A DNA stretch of 64,000 nt from an uncultured delta proteobacterium (GTDB lineage Bacteria > Desulfobacterota > Binatia > UBA9968), in assembly GCA_963755715.1 (NCBI GenBank), contig CAVWLW010000033.1, forward strand, positions 32,001 to 96,000, written 5' to 3'. Position numbers and translations under genes: made by a program. Positions 619-22,507 of this stretch are shown in pieces (the stretch's first letter is position 1; each line of letters starts with the position of its first letter). The notes beneath the pieces were generated by a model. That model did no database searches, was not told the DNA's origin, and saw only the letters and a list, made by a program, of their open reading frames with translations.

Positions 619-653
619 AATCCCGGAAACAGAATTTGAAAGGAGACTGTCCA

Positions 654-2144
654 ATGACAGCACTAGAGGCTAGAAAGTTAGCCGAAGATGACATGAAAGC
701 GGGGAAGACCCCGAAATACACCGATTTGCGTGATTGGTTGGAAATCGTCGACAGCATCGGCGAGCTGAAAAAGGTCGATGGCGTCGACTGGAATCTCGAA
801 ATGGGCACGCTTGCCGAGATCTTTGCCCGTGAGTCCAAGAGCGGCGTGACGCCGGCGGTTTTGTTTGACAACGTCCCGGGTTATCCGAAAGGATTCCGCA
901 CTCTGTTCGCCCAAAACGCTTCGTTCAAACGCATGGCTTTAAATTTGGGCCTGGACATGAACCTTTCCAGTCTCGATTTGGTTCGCGCCTTCCGCCAAAA
1001 GCTAGTGAGCCATGAGCCGATCAAGCATAAAGTCGTCACCAAAGGCCCCATTCTCGAGAACGTGGATTCCGGCGACAAAGTTGATTTGCTCAAATTTCCC
1101 GTGCCGTTCATGCACGAGCTTGACGGCGGTCGCTTCATCGGCACTGCCTGTTTAGTGACCACGCGCGATCCGGACGAAGGCTGGGTTAATTTCGGCGCTT
1201 ATCGCGGCATGGTGCACGACAAGAACAGCATGGGGCTTTATATTTCGCCCGGCAAGCACGGCAGCATCCAGCGCAATAAATACTTCGAACGCGGCAAGCC
1301 TTGCCCGGTCGTCGTTTCCGTTGGTCAAGACCCGGTTTTGTTCATGGTATCCGGTAACGAAATCGATTACGGCGTTTCCGAGTTCGATTACGCGGGCGGT
1401 CTCAAAGGCGCTCCCGTTGAAGTTATTGAAGGGAAGTCCACCGGGCTTCCGTTTGCGGCCAATGCGGAAATCGTCATCGAAGGTTGGATGGATCCGACGG
1501 ACAGAAAGACCGAAGGTCCGTTCGGCGAATGGACCGGTTACTACGCCAGTTCGAGCCGTCCCGAGCCGGTGATTCGCGTCGAAAACGTTTACTACAGAAA
1601 CGAGCCGATTCTCTGCTGTGCTCGTCCCGGCCGCCCGCCGTCGGATTATTCCATCGCTAAATGCATGGTGAAGGCGGCGTTGATCTGGGAGCAGGTCGAG
1701 AAATGCGGCGTGCCGGATGTCAAAGGGGTGTGGTGTCACGAAGCCGGCGGCGGCCGCCTCTTCAATATCATCTCGATCAAACAGCGCTATCCCGGCCATG
1801 CGCGCCAGGCGATGCTTGCTGCGTCGCAAGTTCACGCCGGCGCTTATCTTGGCCGTTACGTCATCGTCGTCGACGAAGACATCGATCCGACCAACACCTT
1901 CGATGTAATCTGGGCGTTAGCCAGCCGCTCCGATCCGGTGGAGTCGATTGAAATCCTCCGCCGTTGCTGGAGCGGCCCGCTCGATCCGCGCATCCAACCG
2001 GGCAAGAAGGGCTTCAACTCGCGCGCGGTGATCGATGCCTGCCGGCCGTTCGAGTGGATGAAAGACTTCCCGCCGGTAGCCGAATCTTCTCCGGAGCTGA
2101 AGGAGAAGATCTACAACAAGTGGAAGAAAGTTATCGAAGCATAG
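654..2144 (+). CDS. UbiD-family (prFMN-dependent) decarboxylase
   Basis: GAYRGMVH and EGPFGEWTGYY catalytic motifs, VIVVDEDIDP; AGGAG RBS at 641-645 supports ATG 654. Confidence 0.92.
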   Translation: MTALEARKLAEDDMKAGKTPKYTDLRDWLEIVDSIGELKKVDGVDWNLEMGTLAEIFARESKSGVTPAVLFDNVPGYPKGFRTLFAQNASFKRMALNLGLDMNLSSLDLVRAFRQKLVSHEPIKHKVVTKGPILENVDSGDKVDLLKFPVPFMHELDGGRFIGTACLVTTRDPDEGWVNFGAYRGMVHDKNSMGLYISPGKHGSIQRNKYFERGKPCPVVVSVGQDPVLFMVSGNEIDYGVSEFDYAGGLKGAPVEVIEGKSTGLPFAANAEIVIEGWMDPTDRKTEGPFGEWTGYYASSSRPEPVIRVENVYYRNEPILCCARPGRPPSDYSIAKCMVKAALIWEQVEKCGVPDVKGVWCHEAGGGRLFNIISIKQRYPGHARQAMLAASQVHAGAYLGRYVIVVDEDIDPTNTFDVIWALASRSDPVESIEILRRCWSGPLDPRIQPGKKGFNSRAVIDACRPFEWMKDFPPVAESSPELKEKIYNKWKKVIEA

Positions 2145-7932: not shown

Positions 7933-8307
7933 ATGCGCGTACTCAAAATGAGTGAACTTGAAGAAAAGCCGATGGACACGGCGACGCCCATCGCCGGCTG
8001 GACGGGTGGAGCAGTGAGCCGGACGCGGCAGGCAATTATTGGCGACGGGCAGTCGGAGAATTTCCGCTGTAACGTGGTCAATTTCCGGGTTGGCGCAACG
8101 ACTGGCTGGCATGTGCACGACTGCGATCAGATTCTTGTCGTCACAGCGGGAAAGGGAAAAGTCGCGAGTGAAACTGAAGAGCGTGATATCACGGTTGGCG
8201 ATGTCGTCCATATCAAAGCCGGAGAGCGTCATTGGCATGGCGCGTCGGCGACTTCGCCGCTGTCGCACATCACAGTGACGACGGTGGGCAGCACGTCGAA
8301 GCATTGA
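7933..8307 (+). CDS. Cupin domain protein
   Basis: WHVHDCDQIL and GERHWHGA cupin motifs; AGGAG RBS. Confidence 0.88.
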   Translation: MRVLKMSELEEKPMDTATPIAGWTGGAVSRTRQAIIGDGQSENFRCNVVNFRVGATTGWHVHDCDQILVVTAGKGKVASETEERDITVGDVVHIKAGERHWHGASATSPLSHITVTTVGSTSKH

Positions 8308-8411: not shown

Positions 8412-8492
8412 GACTCCGAGAGAATCTTTCCGCGTGGTGATCTAGACGTGAACAGGTACTGATCCGGTTTTGGCTTCGGAGGAGGAATACTC

Positions 8493-9383
8493 ATGCAAAT
8501 TCTGAAAGGCGACTTGAGTAACGTCAAAGGAATCCCTCCGAGCGGGCTCTGCGTCGGCGTTCATCGCGCCGGCGCGGTGCATCAGAAGATGGTCGCGAAG
8601 CACGGCGACGGTCTCGCAGTCTGGTCGCTCAGACCCGATCTGGATTTCATTGCTTTCAAAAAGGAAGGGCTGGGCGAACAGGGGATTCGCTCCACCAGTG
8701 ATATGGAATCGATAGACGCCGGTGAAAAACTGATTTACGGCGTGCGCGGGGCGCCGCCCGAGGTGAGAGAAAAGGCGCGTGAGAAAGGCCTCACCCTGCT
8801 GGCCGACGCGACCTGTCCTTTTGTCACGCAGCAGGAAGAGGCGGAGATCGAGCTGCTGAACGCCGGCTGTCATCTGGTGGTTCTCAGCAGTCGCACGCAT
8901 CACGGCATCCCGAGGTTGCAGGGGATCGCGCGAGCGAAAGGCAAAGAAGTTTTTATCGTCGAGCGCGAGGAAGAAGTCGATTCGATTCGGCTCACTCGTT
9001 TCGAGCCCATCGGCGTGATCGTGCAGACGACCTTCTGGCTGGAAACGTACAAGAAAATTATGGCGCGCATACTCGAGCGCTTCGCCAACGTCCAGGTTCG
9101 CAACACTGCCTGCATCGACTCGCTGCAGCGACTTCCGGAGGTAGAAAAGCTAGCTAAACAAGTCGATGCGATAATTATTTTCGGCTGGACCGAAGGCATG
9201 ACGACCCGAATGATCGAAGTCGCCCGCGCTTTCAATGCGGACGTGCACAAAATCGAAAAGGTCGACGACCTCAGGTTGGACTGGCTGCGGGGAAAAGAGA
9301 AAGTGGGTATCATCGGCGCCAACGAGACCCCCGAGTGGATGATCAATGAAGCGATCGAGCGCATCAAAAGCATGGCGGCCTGA
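8493..9383 (+). CDS. Divergent IspH/LytB-fold [4Fe-4S] protein (probably not a canonical HMBPP reductase)
   Basis: GLCVGVHRA, DATCPFV, QTTF and NTAC align with IspH; VHN, AHG, HPE and SSN motifs are absent. Confidence 0.8.
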   Translation: MQILKGDLSNVKGIPPSGLCVGVHRAGAVHQKMVAKHGDGLAVWSLRPDLDFIAFKKEGLGEQGIRSTSDMESIDAGEKLIYGVRGAPPEVREKAREKGLTLLADATCPFVTQQEEAEIELLNAGCHLVVLSSRTHHGIPRLQGIARAKGKEVFIVEREEEVDSIRLTRFEPIGVIVQTTFWLETYKKIMARILERFANVQVRNTACIDSLQRLPEVEKLAKQVDAIIIFGWTEGMTTRMIEVARAFNADVHKIEKVDDLRLDWLRGKEKVGIIGANETPEWMINEAIERIKSMAA

Positions 9384-9386
9384 GCT

Positions 9387-9668
9387 ATGCCGAAAGTGAC
9401 GTTTATGCCGGTCGGCCAGTCGTTTGAAGTGGCGGCGGGGACGACGATCCTGGTTTCGGCGATCCAGAACGGCTTGCAGCTGCGCCACGACTGCACCGAA
9501 GCGATTTGCGGCACGGACCGGGTGAAGATCCTTTCCGGTAAAGAACAGCTGAGTGAAAAGAATGAGAACGAGGAATTGACCCTCGAAATGATGAACGCGG
9601 GGCCGGACGAAAGACTCGCTTGCGTCGCGCGGGTTGTCGGCGACGTGACTGTCCAAGTGATCGAGTAA
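9387..9668 (+). CDS. 2Fe-2S ferredoxin with atypical C-x4-C-x2-D...C ligand set
   Basis: HDCTEAICGTDRV...ERLAC; starts 3 nt after the IspH-like stop. Confidence 0.85.
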   Translation: MPKVTFMPVGQSFEVAAGTTILVSAIQNGLQLRHDCTEAICGTDRVKILSGKEQLSEKNENEELTLEMMNAGPDERLACVARVVGDVTVQVIE

Positions 9669-9686: not shown

Positions 9687-10793
9687 ATGGCGGCGCCAGT
9701 GGCGATTCTAGCAAAACCGGACGATCATCGCGGTATTCTCACCATGGCGGAGGCGGTCAATGCTATGATCGAGGCGTTTCGCAATTGGGCGCAGGACCCG
9801 CTGGTGGCGGAGCTTCGGCGGCGCACGCATACGCCGAAGAACGTACGAATTACTTTACACCAGGGCGCCGCGCCGGCTTACGGCACGACGGGCATCATGG
9901 CGCACGCGGAGCTTGTGCGCATTTTCGGCGACAAACAAAAATATCCGCGCCGCGGCCGCCCGGTGCTGGTGCTTTACGACAGCGACACCGCGGCTTTGAA
10001 ACTCATTCTAATCGGCGAAATGCATCCCAAAGAGCTGCCGGATGCAAACAGCGTGGTGGCGATGCCGACGGCCTGCGCTTCGATGGTCGGGACCGATCTG
10101 CTCGCGCGCAAAGATTGCCGGGTCGCGGGGATTTTCGGCGCCGGGGATCAGGCCAGACTGCACCTCCTCGCGCTCACCTGTATTCGGAAATCGATCAATA
10201 AAGTGCGTGTCTTCAGCCCGACCCGCGAAACCCGAGAAAAGTTCGCTGCGGAAATGAGCGCGGTTTTGAGTATCGAAGTCAGCGCCGCTGATTCTGCCGC
10301 AGAGGTGGTCGACGGCGCCGACGTGATCGTGTGCGCGACCAATTCGAACGTTCCTGTCTTTGACGGTAATTGGCTGGTTCCCGGCCAGCATGTCACCTCG
10401 ATCGTTTCGAGCAACATCGGATTGAAAAAGAGAGGCTATGTCGACCAAATGCGCCGTGAGATCGACGAGCGGACTCTGGAGCGCGCCGACATTTTGATGA
10501 CCAATGTTTGGGGACAGGAAGAACTGGACAAGACCGCAGTGTTTTGGGAAGCCTCACTCGATCGTCCGAATATCGCGCGCAAGATCGTCGACGCCGGAGA
10601 GGTGATTCGCGGTGAAAAAAACGGACGGACCGACGCTTCTCAAATCACCTATTTCAAAAACTGCGCGTTTTGGGGCATCGGCGCCGCGGCCATCGGCGGG
10701 CTGATCTACGACAAACTTTTGCAGCAGCGCAAGGGATTGGTGCTCGACTTCAACCCGCATGAATTTTATGACGATGCGTGGACGGAGGATTAG
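9687..10793 (+). CDS. Ornithine cyclodeaminase / mu-crystallin family protein
   Basis: GIFGAGDQARLH Rossmann motif, ADVIVCATNS, GQHVTSI, ITYFKN; AGGAGG RBS. Confidence 0.85.
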   Translation: MAAPVAILAKPDDHRGILTMAEAVNAMIEAFRNWAQDPLVAELRRRTHTPKNVRITLHQGAAPAYGTTGIMAHAELVRIFGDKQKYPRRGRPVLVLYDSDTAALKLILIGEMHPKELPDANSVVAMPTACASMVGTDLLARKDCRVAGIFGAGDQARLHLLALTCIRKSINKVRVFSPTRETREKFAAEMSAVLSIEVSAADSAAEVVDGADVIVCATNSNVPVFDGNWLVPGQHVTSIVSSNIGLKKRGYVDQMRREIDERTLERADILMTNVWGQEELDKTAVFWEASLDRPNIARKIVDAGEVIRGEKNGRTDASQITYFKNCAFWGIGAAAIGGLIYDKLLQQRKGLVLDFNPHEFYDDAWTED

Positions 10794-10980: not shown

Positions 10981-11535
10981 ATGCCTTACATCAGAACCAT
11001 TCCGCCGCAGAGGCGACCGGCAAGCTCAAAGAAGTTTACGAGTCGCTGGCGGCGGGCCTTCGGCGGCGAGGGGAAAAGTCGCGATGGTGCGCCAAGTGCA
11101 GAGTTTGAATCCCGACGCTCTCATGGCGTGGAGCGACCTAGGCGCTGAGATCATGCACGGGCGGTCGAACTATTACGCGGCGCCAGCGCGAAATGATCGC
11201 GACCGTCGTGTCGGCGACGAATCACTGTAGCTATTGAACGACCGCTCACGGAGAGGCTCTCCGTACAGAGACCGACGACGATCCGTTCGTCGAAGCGATC
11301 AAGCAGGACTACACCAAAGTCGATTTGCCGGCCGAATGAGCGGGCGATGTTGGACTACGCTGTAAAGCTCACCATCGCACCGTCGAGCGTCGGGGAGGAA
11401 GACATCAAAATCTTGCGCTCACACGGCTTCGACGATCGCGATATCCTCGACATCATCTACGTGATTTGTCTGTACAACTTTAACGATCGGATCGCCGATG
11501 CCACAGGAATCAAAGCACACGATTTTCTTCGATAA
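10981..11535 (+). CDS. AhpD/CMD-like peroxidase-related protein with CxxU selenocysteine motif (four apparent frameshifts)
   Basis: Reconstruction MPYIRTIP..EATGKLKEVY..QSLNPDAL..ITRRQREMIATVVSATNHCSY(TGA)TTAHGEALR..ERAMLDYAVKLT..YNFNDRIADATG; TGA at 11235-11237. Confidence 0.75.
11248..11264 (+). promoter_or_regulatory. Putative bacterial SECIS hairpin
   Basis: ACGGAG-AGGCT-CTCCGT; G-containing loop starts 16 nt after the in-frame TGA. Confidence 0.6.
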
Positions 11536-13183: not shown

Positions 13184-14343
13184 ATGAAATTCTCAATCTT
13201 CATGATGCCGCTGCATCATCCGACAGAAAATCCGTCGCTGGCGTTCGATCGCGATATCTCGCTGATCCACTATGCGGAAGAGCTTGGCTATGACGAGTTC
13301 TTTATCGGCGAGCATCACTCCGGCGGTTGGGAAACCATGCCCGCGCCGGAAATGGCTCTGGCCAAAGCATCGGCGCATGCCCACCGCATTCGCCTTGGCA
13401 CGTCGGTCATCAGCGTGCCGTTTCATCATCCGTTTCACGTCGCCGAGCGGATGGCGTTTCTCGATCATCTCACGAAGGGCCGCGCTATTCTCGGCGTCGG
13501 CCCCTGCGCTCTGGTCACGGACAAGAATCTTTTCGGCCTCGCTACTGAAAAGCTCTACCCGATGATGGCTGAGTCGGTGGATATCATCGTACGCTTGCTC
13601 GAATCGCCCGAGCCGATCGACTACGACGGTCAGTACTGGAAGATCCATCAAATGCGCTTGCAGCTCCGTTCCTACCAACAGCCGCGCATGCCGCTCGCGA
13701 TCGCGTCGTCGGGGAATCCGGTGAGCCTCGAACTGGCCGGCAAGTACGGCATGCTGTTTCTGTCGCCGGCGGGGAAAAATAAGAGAAACAATCAAACCAA
13801 GGCGGAACAATGGAATGACGTCGAAGCGTATCGCCAGCGAAGTCACGGCACGCAAACTTCGCGCGACAATTGGCGCATCGCAACCTGCGTGTATCTCGCC
13901 GACAGCCGGGAAGAGCGTGGCGCGATGTCGAGGAGAATGTCGCGCGCGACATGCAGTATTTTTTCGCCATCGGTCTGAAAGCTCCTTACGAGGCGTACCC
14001 TGGACAGCCGGCGCAAGAAATCACGCCGCGTTCCGGCGCCGACCGGCGCGACTGGATTATCGGCACGCCGGACGACGCGATCGCGCAGATCGAACGCATG
14101 CAGACGGAAACCGGCGGCTTCGGCGGGCTTATGTTGACCACACATGAGTGGGCGAGCACGGAAAAGCTGCGGCACTCTTATGAGCTTTTCGCGCGCTACG
14201 TCATGCCGCACTTTCGCGGCCATACTCAAGGATACCGCGACGAGTGGCAGCGCATTCAGCAAGCAGTCACGAACGGCGGCAGTAAACTCACTCACACCGA
14301 TCAGCCGAGCGATCTGTCGAGTAAAGCTGGCGCGAGGTCATAA
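13184..14343 (+). CDS. LLM-class flavin-dependent monooxygenase (limonene monooxygenase-like), frameshift near 13912
   Basis: FFIGEHHSGGWE, IRLGTSV, DHLTKGR; continues in another frame WIIGTPDD...SYELFARYVMPHF. Confidence 0.85.
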
Positions 14344-18456: not shown

Positions 18457-20113
18457 CTAGTCTAAAGTTTCCAATTTCAAAACCGACGCGCCGTGGTTGC
18501 TGCCGACCCAGAACGTTACCGGCGAAGTATTGTTATCCACGAATACTCGGCGGATGTTGGTCTCCCGCGGCAACAGATAGTCGGTGAACTGGCTGGTCTT
18601 GGGGTCGAGGCGCGTGACCCGGTCGGTCCACATGGAGCCGGCCCAAACTTCACCGTTTTTATCCGGCACGACGTGGTAGGGCGCGCTCCAGGGGATCGGC
18701 ACCTTCCATTCCTGGATTTTCCCCGACTTCGGATCGAGCATGCCGATGCCATTGGCGCCGTATTCCGCGAACCAGAGACGATCCTGCGCATCGAATCGGC
18801 CGCGCCGCGGTCGGGAGCCTTGTGTGATCGTCGAGAAAACTTTGAACTCTTTGGTCTTGGCATCGATACGGCCGATGTTGTTGGCGCCAAACTCGAGCAA
18901 GTAGAGATTGTTCTCACTGTCCGACGGAATGCCGTAGGCGTTGATCGAGCGACCGGCGCCGGGAATCTGAAACTCGCCGAGATTTTCGTATTGTCCTGTG
19001 GCGAGATCGAGCCGATAGATGGCATGGGTGTCCTGATTGTTCGTCCAGACTTTGCCGTCCACGTGAGAATTCGCCGGGCTCACCATCGATTGCTGGGTGT
19101 GATCGCCCTGCCATTCCTTTGGCACCGGGTAAACCTGAAACTTTTCCGTCTTGCGGTCGAACTTGGCGATGCCGCCCTGATACATCAATGACACCCAAAC
19201 ATTTTGTTCCTTATCCAGCTGGAGATCGAGCGTCCCGAGGGGAAATCCCTTTTTCAGCACCGGGATCGGAAATTCCGTTACTTCGCCGGTCTTTGGATTC
19301 AGGCGGCCGATAAACTGTTCGCCGAAATCCGAGTACCAGACAAGCCCTTCGGAGTCTAGGACGACGTCGTGCGGCATCGCCAACTTCCGCGGCAGATCAT
19401 ATTCAGTGATGATCGTGTGCGTGGCTTTGCCCTTGGGCCGCGGCAAAGTTTTGAGCGGAAAACTCTGCTTCGAGTTGTAGCTCGCGTTCACGTTGGCAAG
19501 CCAGGCGCCGAGTTCCATCGGATCGACGCCGCGGGTGCGGTCGCGCTGCACGCTCCCGACAGTCACTTGCGGCCGGAGCGGACTGCTGCCCGGCGCATAA
19601 GTCGACATGCGGCGAAATACTTGCACCCACTCTTCCGCGCTTTTGTTGGCCTTTACGATACGTTCAATGGTGTGGCAGCCGTTACAACTTAGGAGAAAAT
19701 TTTTCTGCTGTTCCGTGCCGGGTATGCTCAGCAGCCATTCAGCGTCGGTTAGTTGCGCCGACGGATTTTCGGCCGCTTTGAGTTTGAGATTGGCGGTGGC
19801 GGTTTTGCCGGCGATCACGTCGACGGTCTTGGGACCGTCGAGATCGTAACCGACCGCACGAATTTTCAGAGCGTAATGGCCGGGCTCAAGTTTTTCACCG
19901 GGAAAGGCAAATCGTCCTTTGGCGTCGCTGACGACATTGACCGTCATCGTCGAGCCGTCTTTTTTGGCGCCGACGACGACGCCTTCCATCAAGCTTTTCT
20001 TTTTGCGAGCTGACTTGGCCGGTCAGTGCTATGGCGCCGTTGGCGTGAACATCGGTGGCGAGTAGTAACGAAAAGACTACCAGGGCGACGCTGGCGAGAA
20101 ATTTGTTCCGCAT
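18457..20113 (-). CDS. Exported carboxypeptidase-regulatory-like domain + c-type heme + Vgb-like beta-propeller protein (frameshift near 19990)
   Basis: Signal MRNKFLASVALV; SDAKGRF...GHY.LKIRAVGY beta-sandwich; CNGCH; repeated G.VW...IGRLDPKTG propeller blades. Confidence 0.8.
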
Positions 20114-20345
20114 TTGAATCCTCCTTAGACGGGCCGTTTTTGGAGATCCGAAGGGAAGCATGCACAAAGTAGCACCGGATCGTTCCCGGCGTCAATTGCC
20201 TTTTTTAACCCCCTATTTAGCTCTTGCGCGCGGGTGGTTGTGCGTTGCTCCGAGAAGCGGGTGTGGTGTATATATGCGCGTGTTGGAGACCTGCTCGACT
20301 CGATGCTGCAACAAGTCCGAGTCCGATCGCGGAAAAGGAGGGAAC

Positions 20346-22507
20346 ATGAAAAAAACAAAATGGCTATTTGTAAGTTCGATGATAAGCGTGGTTGCGATAT
20401 TCTTGATGCTCTCTCCATACCGGCTGAGCAGCCAACAAGGTGCAGTGGTGCGCGTCGACGGTGACGACGTCGGAGGCGTGGTCACCAGCGTGAACGGTCC
20501 GGAGGCCGGCGTCTGGGTGATCGCTGAGACAACGGATCTACCGACCAAGTTTGCCAAGATCGTGGTCACCGATGATCAGGGCCGTTACTTGATTCCCGAC
20601 CTGCCGAAAGCAAATTACAATATTTGGGTGCGTGGTTACGGGCTTGTCGACTCACCGAAAGTTCGGACGGCGCCTGGGAAGACGCTCAATCTCAAAGCGG
20701 TGATTGCATCGACCGATGCCGCGGCGGCTGAATATTATCCGGCAATCTACTGGTATTCGATGCTCAAGATTCCCGACAAGAGCGAATTTCCCGGCACCGG
20801 GGAAAAAGGCAACGGCATGCCGGAAAAACTAAAACATCAAGCTCAGTGGCTCGACGTAGTAAAAACCAATGGCTGCAACACTTGCCATCAACTGGGGAAC
20901 AAAGCGACACGAACAATTGCCAAACAGTTGGGTGAATTCAAATCGTCATCCGACGCCTGGCAGCGGCGCATTCTTTCCGGTCAGGCCATGACGTCGATGC
21001 TCAACGCCGTTGACAGAATCGATTCGAACCGCGCTATGGCCCTCTTCGGCGATTGGACGGACCGCATCGCTGCCGGCGAAGTGCCGAAGTCAAAACCACC
21101 GCGGCCCCAGGGTGTAGAGCGCAACGTCGTCATCAACGTGTGGGATTGGAGCAATCCCAAGGCTTATCTTCACGACGAGATTTCCACCGACAAGCGCAAT
21201 CCGACGGTCAATGCCAACGGGCCGATTTACGGCTCGACGGAATTGAGCACGGATCTTGTGCCGGTGCTTGACCCGCAACATCACAAAGCTTGGGAGATGA
21301 AACATCCCGTGCGCGATCCGAACACGCCGTCCGCGAAGACGGACCCGCTCGCGCCGTCGCCTTACTGGGGCGCTGAGCCGATCTGGGATAGCCAATCGAA
21401 CCAACACAATCCGATGATGGATGAAAAGGCGCGCGTGTGGTTTACGGCGAGAGTCCGTCCGCCGGAGAATCCCGATTTTTGCAAGAAGGGATCGAGCCAT
21501 CCGTCGGCTAAGGTTTTCCCCATCAACAGCGCGAACCGGCATCTATCGATGTACGACCCGAAAACAAAAAAGTTCACCTTGATCAGCACCTGCTTTTCTA
21601 CGCACCATCTGGTTTTTGCGGAAGATGCCGATCACACGCTCTGGACCAGCGCCGGTGGTCCCGCCAGCGGCGTCGTCGGTTGGCTGAACCGCAAGATGTT
21701 CGAAGAAACCGGCGACGAGCAGAAGTCGCAAGGCTGGACACCGCTGATTCTCGACACCAACGGCAACGGCAAGCGCGACGAATGGGTCGAGCCAAATCAG
21801 GCCGTCGATCCGACGAAAGACAAGCGCGTCGCGGCGGCTTTTACGGTATCGCCGTGAGCCCGGTGGACGGTACGGTGTGGGGATCTTCCCAGGGATTTCC
21901 CAGCTCCATCGTGCGACTCAACCCAGGGCCAAATCCTTCGGAAACCGCGCTCGCTGAATTATACGAGGTGCCGCTCGACGCCGGCGCCTACGGCATCCGT
22001 GGGATGGACATCGACCGCAACGGTGTGGTTTGGTCTTCGCTGTCGAGCGGCCATCTGGCGAGCTTTGACCGGCGCAAGTGCAAAGTGCTAAACGGCCCAA
22101 CAGCCACTGGCAAGCACTGTCCCGAAGGCTGGACGCTGCACACGCTGCCAGGACCCAACTTCGAGAGTTTGAAAGAGCCGGGCAGCGCGGAGGCAAGCTA
22201 TTACACCTGGGTGGATCAGTTCGATACTTTCGGTCTGGGCAAAGACGTGCCGATCGCCACCGGCAATCTGAACGATTCTTTGTTGGCTCTGGTGGATGGA
22301 AAGTTCGTCAACCTACGCGTGCCGTATCCTTTGGGATTTTACGCCAAGTGGATGGACGGCAGAATCGACGACCCGAAGGGCGGCTGGAAGGGCAGAGGCC
22401 TGTGGGCGACCACCGGCACGCGGACGCCATTCCACATGGAAGGCGGCAAGGGCACGCGGCCAAAGGTCGTGAAGTTCCAGTTGAGGCCCGATCCATTGGC
22501 GAAATAA
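20346..22507 (+). CDS. Exported mono-heme cytochrome c / beta-propeller protein, paralog 1 (frameshift near 21840)
   Basis: Signal peptide; GPEAGVWVIAET..VTDDQGRY; CNTCH; YLHD, QHN, THH; DTNGNGKRD; ends RPDPLAK. Confidence 0.82.

Follow-up and report, generated by a model that had tools for sequence, protein, structure and literature searches.

IspH (HMBPP reductase, EC 1.17.7.4) belongs to the small group of enzymes that use organometallic [4Fe-4S] chemistry, and HMBPP reduction is, to our knowledge, its single natural reaction, the literature search made here having found no second one either. NadA (quinolinate synthase) and Dph2 are architectural relatives of IspH, being three-domain enzymes with a site-differentiated [4Fe-4S] cluster, and they show that such an architecture can act on carboxylates or SAM. 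According to PMC8837944, the diphosphate pocket of IspH is composed of H41, H74, H124, Q166, T168, S225, N227, and S269, T167 holds the iron-bound hydroxyl, and the E126Q, E126D, and E126A mutants are almost inactive (0.3% for E126Q). PMC4864966 reports that the mutation equivalent to E126Q in Bacillus IspH, E133Q, results in loss of HMBPP reductase activity, but that the mutant still makes isoprene from HMBPP by eliminating the hydroxyl and the diphosphate, with ferredoxin, FNR, and NADPH.

The locus analyzed here lies in a 64,000-nucleotide stretch of DNA from an uncultured soil member of the Binatia (the window, to which positions refer unless a contig is named) and includes the following features.
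7933..8307 (+), cupin (Pfam Cupin_2), a variable upstream neighbor, also upstream in loci L003 and L018 and absent from most loci
8478..8485 (+), ribosome binding site-like GGAGGAGG, as read from the sequence, 7 nt before the ATG of the IspH-like gene
8493..9383 (+), IspH-like (LytB-fold) [4Fe-4S] protein, 296 residues, a clean open reading frame
8550-8552, 8814-8816, and 9111-9113, codons for its cluster cysteines C20, C108, and C207
about residues 8-16, its 8-residue N-terminal insert, not in canonical IspH
D51, R85 (8745-8747), Q114, H136-H137-G138 (8898-8906), R141 (8913-8915), Q178-T179-T180, D209-S210, R213, and N277, residues of its putatively rebuilt pocket
9387..9668 (+), apparently dedicated [2Fe-2S] ferredoxin (Pfam Fer2, PF00111), 93 residues, starting 3 bp past the stop of the IspH-like gene
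9687..10793 (+), ornithine cyclodeaminase/mu-crystallin family protein (OCD; Pfam PF02423), 18 bp past the ferredoxin gene

The 296-residue protein is a member of the LytB/IspH fold family: it scores 153.9 bits against Pfam LYTB (PF02401, cut-off 24.5) over residues 16-292, and its AlphaFold2 model (mean pLDDT 92.1, from a 20-row alignment) has three domains with one cluster cysteine in each and matches IspH over the whole chain (TM 0.85 with 3szu; Z 28.2 and rmsd 2.5 with 3zgl for 283 aligned residues, the next unrelated chain having a Z of 8.9). A [4Fe-4S] cluster would be expected to bind to these cysteines. NadA and Dph2 give only weak fold matches (5f35, E 0.017, TM 0.31; 6q2e, E 0.007, TM 0.23), and the protein descends from IspH, not from NadA or Dph2. 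With canonical IspH, whose closest representatives are about 30-35% identical and lie in an aroA-cmk-ispH-type locus, it shares the three-domain fold, the three cluster cysteines, the QTT motif, H124, and the use of a small electron carrier, but it differs in the residues at E126, H41, H74, S225, N227, and S269, in the new invariant residues R85, H137-G138, R141, and D209-S210, in the 8-residue N-terminal insert and, in the Binatia, in the dedicated Cys3Asp ferredoxin. Its score against the TIGR00216 equivalog model is 138 bits, under the cut-off of 187.85, and it is under the cut-offs of all seven NCBIfam IspH models. The protein belongs to a distinct subfamily within the LytB fold family, which has its own carrier and lies outside HMBPP reductase by score and active-site residues. 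Automatic database names for these proteins are HMBPP reductase, a mis-annotation that affects uncultured Binatia from soil and elsewhere.

No description of the subfamily was found among the literature matches listed for IspH-like or LytB-like homologs or paralogs, a search that covered mainly open literature; nothing was found on an IspH paralog with UbiD, on Binatia with UbiD, or on IspH with A199 and the pocket, and the words "ispH" and "decarboxylase" do not occur in the main text of PMC8262859, which deals with the Binatota. In four soil RNA libraries, short contigs of low depth (2-8) cover parts of the genes, and one spans the junction between the IspH-like and ferredoxin genes, which falls short of showing transcription; a scan for promoters and terminators around the genes gave nothing that exceeds chance.

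Comparison with a profile of 68 canonical relatives indicates how the active site has changed. As reported in a first-pass annotation of this DNA, the three cluster cysteines (in GLC, DATCP, and TAC) and the QTT motif are kept, C20, C108, C207, and Q178-T179-T180 aligning with their counterparts in IspH. The same annotation considered the diphosphate ligands to be lost, which applies to five of the eight: H41 is replaced by D51 and H74 by R85, the SSN loop is one residue shorter and reads EGMT, so that S225 and N227 are both changed, and GAS becomes ANE, placing E278 at the position of S269. The other three, H124 (H136), Q166 (Q178), and T168 (T180), are kept, as is T167 (T179). It should be noted that the replacement for H74, being Arg, is another anion binder, and that the residues entering the pocket in the Binatia include the acidic D51, E234, and E278. 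The loss of the catalytic E126 was also correctly recognized, since there is no Glu in either possible register, but its earlier description as a change from HPE to HHG is probably wrong. Profile-profile alignment and MAFFT insert 3 residues and pair P-E-V-x-G of IspH with P140-R141-L142-x-G144, making R141 the counterpart of E126, whereas an ungapped phmmer alignment places G138 there; the R141 register is favored because it keeps the P-x-x-x-G spacing and because a helix in the model starts at residue 139. E126 has therefore probably been replaced by an Arg, R141, and, judged by sequence alignment, new residues of the pocket may face the iron.

These substitutions are not peculiar to one genome. 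A protein search gave 371 relatives, the best 120 of the 371 being listed and nearly all of these 77-94% identical, and a genome scan gave 52 loci with titles that are mostly Binatia or "Deltaproteobacteria"; a search of all representatives added members at 35-57% identity, and a profile search added two more groups, clades B and C, in which one member is named Terriglobia and one Thermodesulfobacteriota, respectively. Residues were counted in 173 proteins, consisting of the query, 119 of the 120 listed relatives, 44 members of clade B, and 9 of clade C, after leaving out P0046, which has an internal duplication, two partial rows, and six canonical-like rows. Throughout the three clades and down to about 30% identity, R85, G86, H137, G138, R141, Q178, T179, T180, C207, D209, S210, and R213 are present in 173 of 173 and Q114 in 172, and C20 and C108 are found in 166 and 172, the remainder being gaps. 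None of the 173 has Glu at the position of R141 or G138, and H136, the counterpart of H124, is Tyr throughout clade B. The 68 canonical relatives keep H41, H74, H124, E126, S225, N227, and S269 in 66-68 of the 68 rows, and 10 of them also have Asp at the D209 position. In a 45-row tree from a quick search, a branch with an SH-aLRT of 100 separates the 20 variant rows from all others, and codon changes relative to five orthologous loci are mostly synonymous (synonymous to non-synonymous, 70:10 to 93:41). The conservation of the substitutions among homologs, a point on which the first-pass interpretation depended, is therefore seen across the family. Because the substitutions are fixed in the family, the canonical relatives keep the IspH residues, and the codon changes are mostly synonymous, the pocket, as judged from the alignments, appears to have been rebuilt and maintained, a product of neither chance nor decay; the fixed residues and the synonymous changes also rule out a pseudogene or an assembly artifact. 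No further variant member was found in phylum samples of 301 and 401 genomes, where the two best other matches are canonical ispH, judging by the one locus that was read; the 85 records from a plasmid collection are all less than 60% identical (26-28% for those listed), and the ESM Atlas gave LytB-named clusters only.

The genome also encodes a second LytB protein (316 bits) with the VHN, AHG, H-x-E, QTT, SEN, and GAS motifs, so that the IspH-like protein is not its sole LytB homolog, and IspG and Dxr are present as well. In the 48 genomes that underlie the 52 loci, four of which are further contigs of two genomes, a LytB protein called canonical by its score rather than residue by residue is present whole (at least 311 bits) in 45, in two pieces in 2, and as a fragment at a contig end in 1. 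The IspH-like protein is 22-24% identical to the ispH product of its own genome, and this distance and its separate branch rule out a recent duplicate. We are confident that it is not the housekeeping IspH, and the separate ispH and the conserved substitutions support its original interpretation as a neofunctionalized IspH-fold Fe-S protein. Two bins containing the gene deserve comment: one titled Gaiellaceae has the variant and a Binatia-scoring ispH on one contig (L013, G310:C15), which may be mis-binned, and no UbiD match, and another, G311, has four copies or parts of the IspH-like gene (L014, L017, L048, and L051) that are 90-95% identical to the query and probably come from mixed strains.

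The product of the downstream gene scores 43.1 bits against the Fer2 profile (cut-off 21) and shares the Fer2 fold and the C-x4-C-x2-(C)...C spacing with the ISC-type and putidaredoxin-type [2Fe-2S] ferredoxins (1i7h and 9i2a), but its ligand motif is C36-x4-C41-x2-D44...C79, in which Asp takes the place of the third Cys, so that it does not have four Cys ligands. D44 aligns with a Cys in the closest solved structure, the ISC ferredoxin 1i7h, and is invariant in the 26 aligned orthologs. Ligation of a [2Fe-2S] center by Asp is known from E. coli SdhB, and the Asp ligand may raise the potential of the ferredoxin, a change as compatible with accepting electrons as with donating them.

In the first lineage, the ferredoxin gene is directly downstream of the IspH-like gene in 26 of the 27 loci with downstream DNA, two of which have wholly different neighbors. 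In the second lineage (27 loci: L026-L047, L049, L050, L054, L059, and L060), the gene that follows the IspH-like gene encodes UbiD and not ferredoxin, and the ferredoxin, with 64-70% identity, is encoded elsewhere in the genome; the gene preceding it in several of these genomes, which from its motifs we take to be metallo-β-lactamase-like, also precedes the adjacent pair in L057 and L058. Among 201 genomes sampled from the class, 17 have the IspH-like gene and 16 have the ferredoxin; all 16 are among the 17, with the two genes unlinked in 11, and the ferredoxin is found in none of the 184 genomes that lack the IspH-like gene. It should be recognized that the comparison of 16/17 with 0/184 overstates independence, because the genomes are relatives and were counted without a tree.

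A complex prediction for the two proteins that included both clusters gave a score of 0.72, as compared with 0.00 for the best control; among solved complexes, 116 of 157 attain the mark used for such scores, as do 2 of 215 mismatched pairs, figures that apply only roughly here. At least 91% of the contacts agree between runs, and the pLDDT of the partner is at least 91. The predicted interface is formed on the IspH-like side by residues flanking the three cysteines, namely 12-17 of the insert, 21, 24-25, 109-110, 113, 208, and 211, and on the ferredoxin side by the cluster loop 33-45 (with contacts including 35-43) and residues 64-70. In the Binatia rows, the interface is more conserved than the average for each protein (0.97 versus 0.85 for the IspH-like protein and 0.91 versus 0.80 for ferredoxin). 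The model therefore has the ferredoxin docking on the cluster face of the IspH-like protein, but its score may arise from a general likeness to ferredoxin complexes; none of the IspH structure entries among the matches listed is titled as a complex with ferredoxin. The clade B genes stand alone amid housekeeping-type genes, with no ferredoxin beside them, in seven of seven short contigs, and clades B and C have other residues at the docking positions; a dedicated ferredoxin partner may for these reasons be specific to the Binatia. In three of the seven contigs (L079, L080, and L081), the clade B gene follows a gene for what its motifs lead us to assume is a NuoI-like protein with two [4Fe-4S] clusters, a possible electron donor or a mere neighbor. 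For the Binatia, the suggestion made at first reading that the IspH-like protein works with the adjacent ferredoxin is supported by linkage, co-occurrence, and the docking model, and we regard the ferredoxin as its partner with considerable, if not complete, confidence.

Other neighbors are less constant. At this locus the OCD gene is probably in the same operon as the pair, which it adjoins in 10 of 27 first-lineage loci, but it was rejected as a fixed partner because an ortholog is present in 7 of 40 genomes, two of which do not carry the IspH-like gene, and in none of 12 second-lineage genomes. The isocitrate lyase-like gene beside the unlinked ferredoxin was set aside because it is present in 9 of 12 non-carriers, and the AhpD-like and 4Fe-4S dicluster neighbors of other loci because they have no close ortholog in this genome. 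The dicluster protein (about 280-300 residues) follows the ferredoxin or OCD in eight loci (L004, L007, L010, L014, L015, L016, L018, and L048). Further along the window, positions 10981-11535 (+) hold, across three frames, a gene labeled AhpD/carboxymuconolactone decarboxylase-like from its likeness to neighbors at other loci; H-C-S-Y is followed in it by an in-frame TGA, which may represent a CxxU selenocysteine motif, and its frame changes may be assembly errors. A luciferase-like monooxygenase at 13184-14343 (+) is apparently split over two overlapping frames but is whole in L019, and this, together with several split UbiD genes in the genome, suggests assembly errors in the form of indels. 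Two large, divergently oriented, secreted-looking proteins, at 18457-19992 (−) and 20160-22507 (+), have similar N-terminal and repeat-rich C-terminal parts, and the latter is split over two frames near 21680-21857.

The genome-wide expansion of UbiD is extreme, with 57 matches and one UbiX in this genome; one paralog is found at the start of the window (636-2144, +). In 47 of the 48 genomes that carry the IspH-like gene there are 16-50 or more UbiD matches. Within the class sample, 29 of 201 genomes are UbiD-rich (26-72 candidates), the others having 0-3 matches, and all 17 carriers are among these 29. The gene was not found in the remaining 12, and G278 (same coordinates as G350), of the same family and 100% complete with 63-68 UbiD candidates, is without it. 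In second-lineage loci, the order IspH-like protein, UbiD, SLOG-cluster-4 protein is present in 27 of 27, mostly followed by an AI-2E transporter, but the adjacent UbiD was rejected as a fixed partner because its ortholog is present in 6 of 12 non-carriers and was not found in 6 of 17 carriers. The IspH-like gene lies outside the riboflavin kinase-UbiX operon of this genome. That operon (L055, G000:C54:73480-76918, −), which is likely to serve the supply of prenylated FMN, encodes an XdhC-like protein, a CTP-dependent riboflavin kinase, UbiX, and an FMN-dependent protein; the last of these is presumably related to type 2 IPP isomerase, which it resembles in its motifs, Pfam giving FMN_dh only. 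No link between the IspH-like gene and MEP genes was seen in any locus examined. Because the UbiD, OCD, and lyase-like genes do not co-occur with the IspH-like gene, the neighborhood gives no substrate.

Since a conserved version of the protein with a rebuilt pocket and an apparent electron carrier of its own is present beside the normal copy, the IspH-like fold very probably runs a second reaction besides HMBPP reduction, and the best inference is a reductase acting on a non-diphosphate substrate. A more specific proposal, to which we give slightly less than an even chance, is that the IspH-like enzyme and the Cys3Asp ferredoxin form a two-protein redox module that uses electrons from the ferredoxin to cleave a C-X bond reductively in a small anionic substrate without a diphosphate. 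The module would consist of an IspH-fold enzyme with a site-differentiated [4Fe-4S] cluster and its own [2Fe-2S] ferredoxin, which in the docking model approaches the outer cluster face through the subfamily-specific N-terminal insert and would there hand over single electrons. As in IspH, an unsaturated substrate would bind to the free iron and be held by the retained T179, and the fold suggests that a two-electron C-X cleavage would follow. The proposed reaction differs from that of IspH in that E126, which protonates the leaving hydroxyl, would be replaced by Arg, as is H74, and the diphosphate pocket would be dismantled and partly acidic in its domain-3 half. The Arg residues at the positions of E126 and H74, the removal of the domain-3 half-pocket, and the added acidic residues together suggest that the substrate is most likely a small anion, allylic or conjugated, that bears a single carboxylate or a single phosphate, and the two Arg residues and the other changes in the pocket suggest a leaving group that needs charge stabilization rather than a proton. 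Such a group could depart as an anion stabilized by R141 and R85; alternatively, the arginines could anchor an acid, with H137 and D209 supplying the proton. In this scheme we infer the direction of electron flow, the reaction type, and the class of substrate. The E133Q and H131N forms of IspH from Bacillus sp. N16-5 (PMC4864966) offer a parallel, in which ferredoxin-dependent reductive elimination is still possible when the catalytic Glu is lost, but these are single laboratory mutants with an intact diphosphate pocket, whereas the variant is a natural family in which the pocket appears rebuilt.

Among the alternatives, a non-reductive role as an Fe-S hydro-lyase or oxidase of a di- or tricarboxylic acid has the most to recommend it, although we think it unlikely. 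The free iron would serve as a Lewis acid, the role it has in aconitase or quinolinate synthase, carboxylates would be held by the arginines, and the ferredoxin would merely reactivate the cluster or take electrons away. The invariant Arg, His, Asp, and Ser residues in the pocket, the loss of the acid used in reductive dehydroxylation, and a host rich in acid-processing enzymes, to judge from its 57 UbiD matches, are consistent with this, as is an acetylene hydratase side activity that IspH reportedly has. However, plain dehydratases have no need for a ferredoxin that is dedicated to them, retained along with them, and docked at a conserved surface, and the OCD and lyase-like neighbors that might complete such a pathway do not co-occur with the gene. 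The loss of the canonical catalytic acid, the relationship of the ferredoxin to an ISC ferredoxin, and the lack of pathway genes that travel with the IspH-like gene would also suit a non-catalytic role, be it as an Fe-S sensor, a carrier of clusters, or an electron relay. A role as sensor had been offered earlier as one option and finds little support, as the 296-residue protein has no DNA-binding or output domain and its full set of invariant polar residues at pocket-lining positions of IspH argues for a bound small molecule; we consider the non-catalytic roles improbable.

The remaining alternatives stay closer to isoprenoid chemistry. The UbiD-rich character of 47 of 48 carriers and of all 17 in the class sample, the position of the gene just before UbiD throughout the second lineage, and the retention of half of the phosphate pocket raise the possibility that the enzyme supports the many UbiD decarboxylases through the supply of prenylated FMN, either by reducing the monophosphate counterpart of HMBPP to dimethylallyl monophosphate or by maturing the cofactor. 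This is quite improbable, considering that a search of the 29 UbiD-rich genomes failed to find the gene in 12, including the complete genome G278 from the same family, that it is not in the riboflavin kinase-UbiX operon, that 6 of the 12 non-carriers have the ortholog of the adjacent UbiD whereas 6 of the 17 carriers do not, and that, according to PMC8837944, E126 is required for such chemistry. A dedicated reductive eliminase that converts HMBPP or a related phosphate ester to isoprene or another diene would have fixed the side reaction seen without E126; according to PMC4864966, isoprene output is maintained and increased in the E133Q and H131N mutants of Bacillus IspH, which have lost the normal reaction, a 2018 review (PMC5864225) calls the bacterial isoprene-forming enzyme undiscovered, and the two new arginines could stabilize a phosphate leaving group. 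The change of five of the eight diphosphate ligands, the acidic D51, E234, and E278 in the pocket, and the lack of an MEP gene link in any locus make this activity highly improbable. Least probable of all, and barely credible, is a divergent HMBPP reductase that has stayed active as a backup to the canonical ispH: the fold, the three cysteines, H124, Q166, T167, and T168 are kept and the automatic names agree with it, but the protein is under all seven NCBIfam IspH cut-offs, the canonical copy is retained, and the E126 mutants described in PMC8837944 are almost inactive, E126Q having 0.3%.

The ferredoxin-coupled reductase acting on a non-diphosphate substrate is thus the interpretation we prefer. 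On this basis, the protein may be the founding member of a second class of IspH-fold enzymes. It would be an organometallic reductive lyase coupled to ferredoxin, in which Arg occupies the position of the catalytic Glu and a Cys3Asp ferredoxin of its own docks by way of the insert peculiar to the family, and its substrates would be allylic acids or monophosphates in which it cleaves C-X bonds; this is a tentative proposal that is rather more likely to need revision than to stand as written. In the boldest version of this proposal, the protein would be a bacterial synthase dedicated to dienes of the isoprene type or a source of dimethylallyl monophosphate. A natural subfamily with a charge-reversed catalytic position, if R141 is the counterpart of E126, and a carrier of its own would provide a two-gene test system for a new reaction of the IspH fold, and the pair of proteins may be a model for the docking of ferredoxin on an IspH-type cluster.
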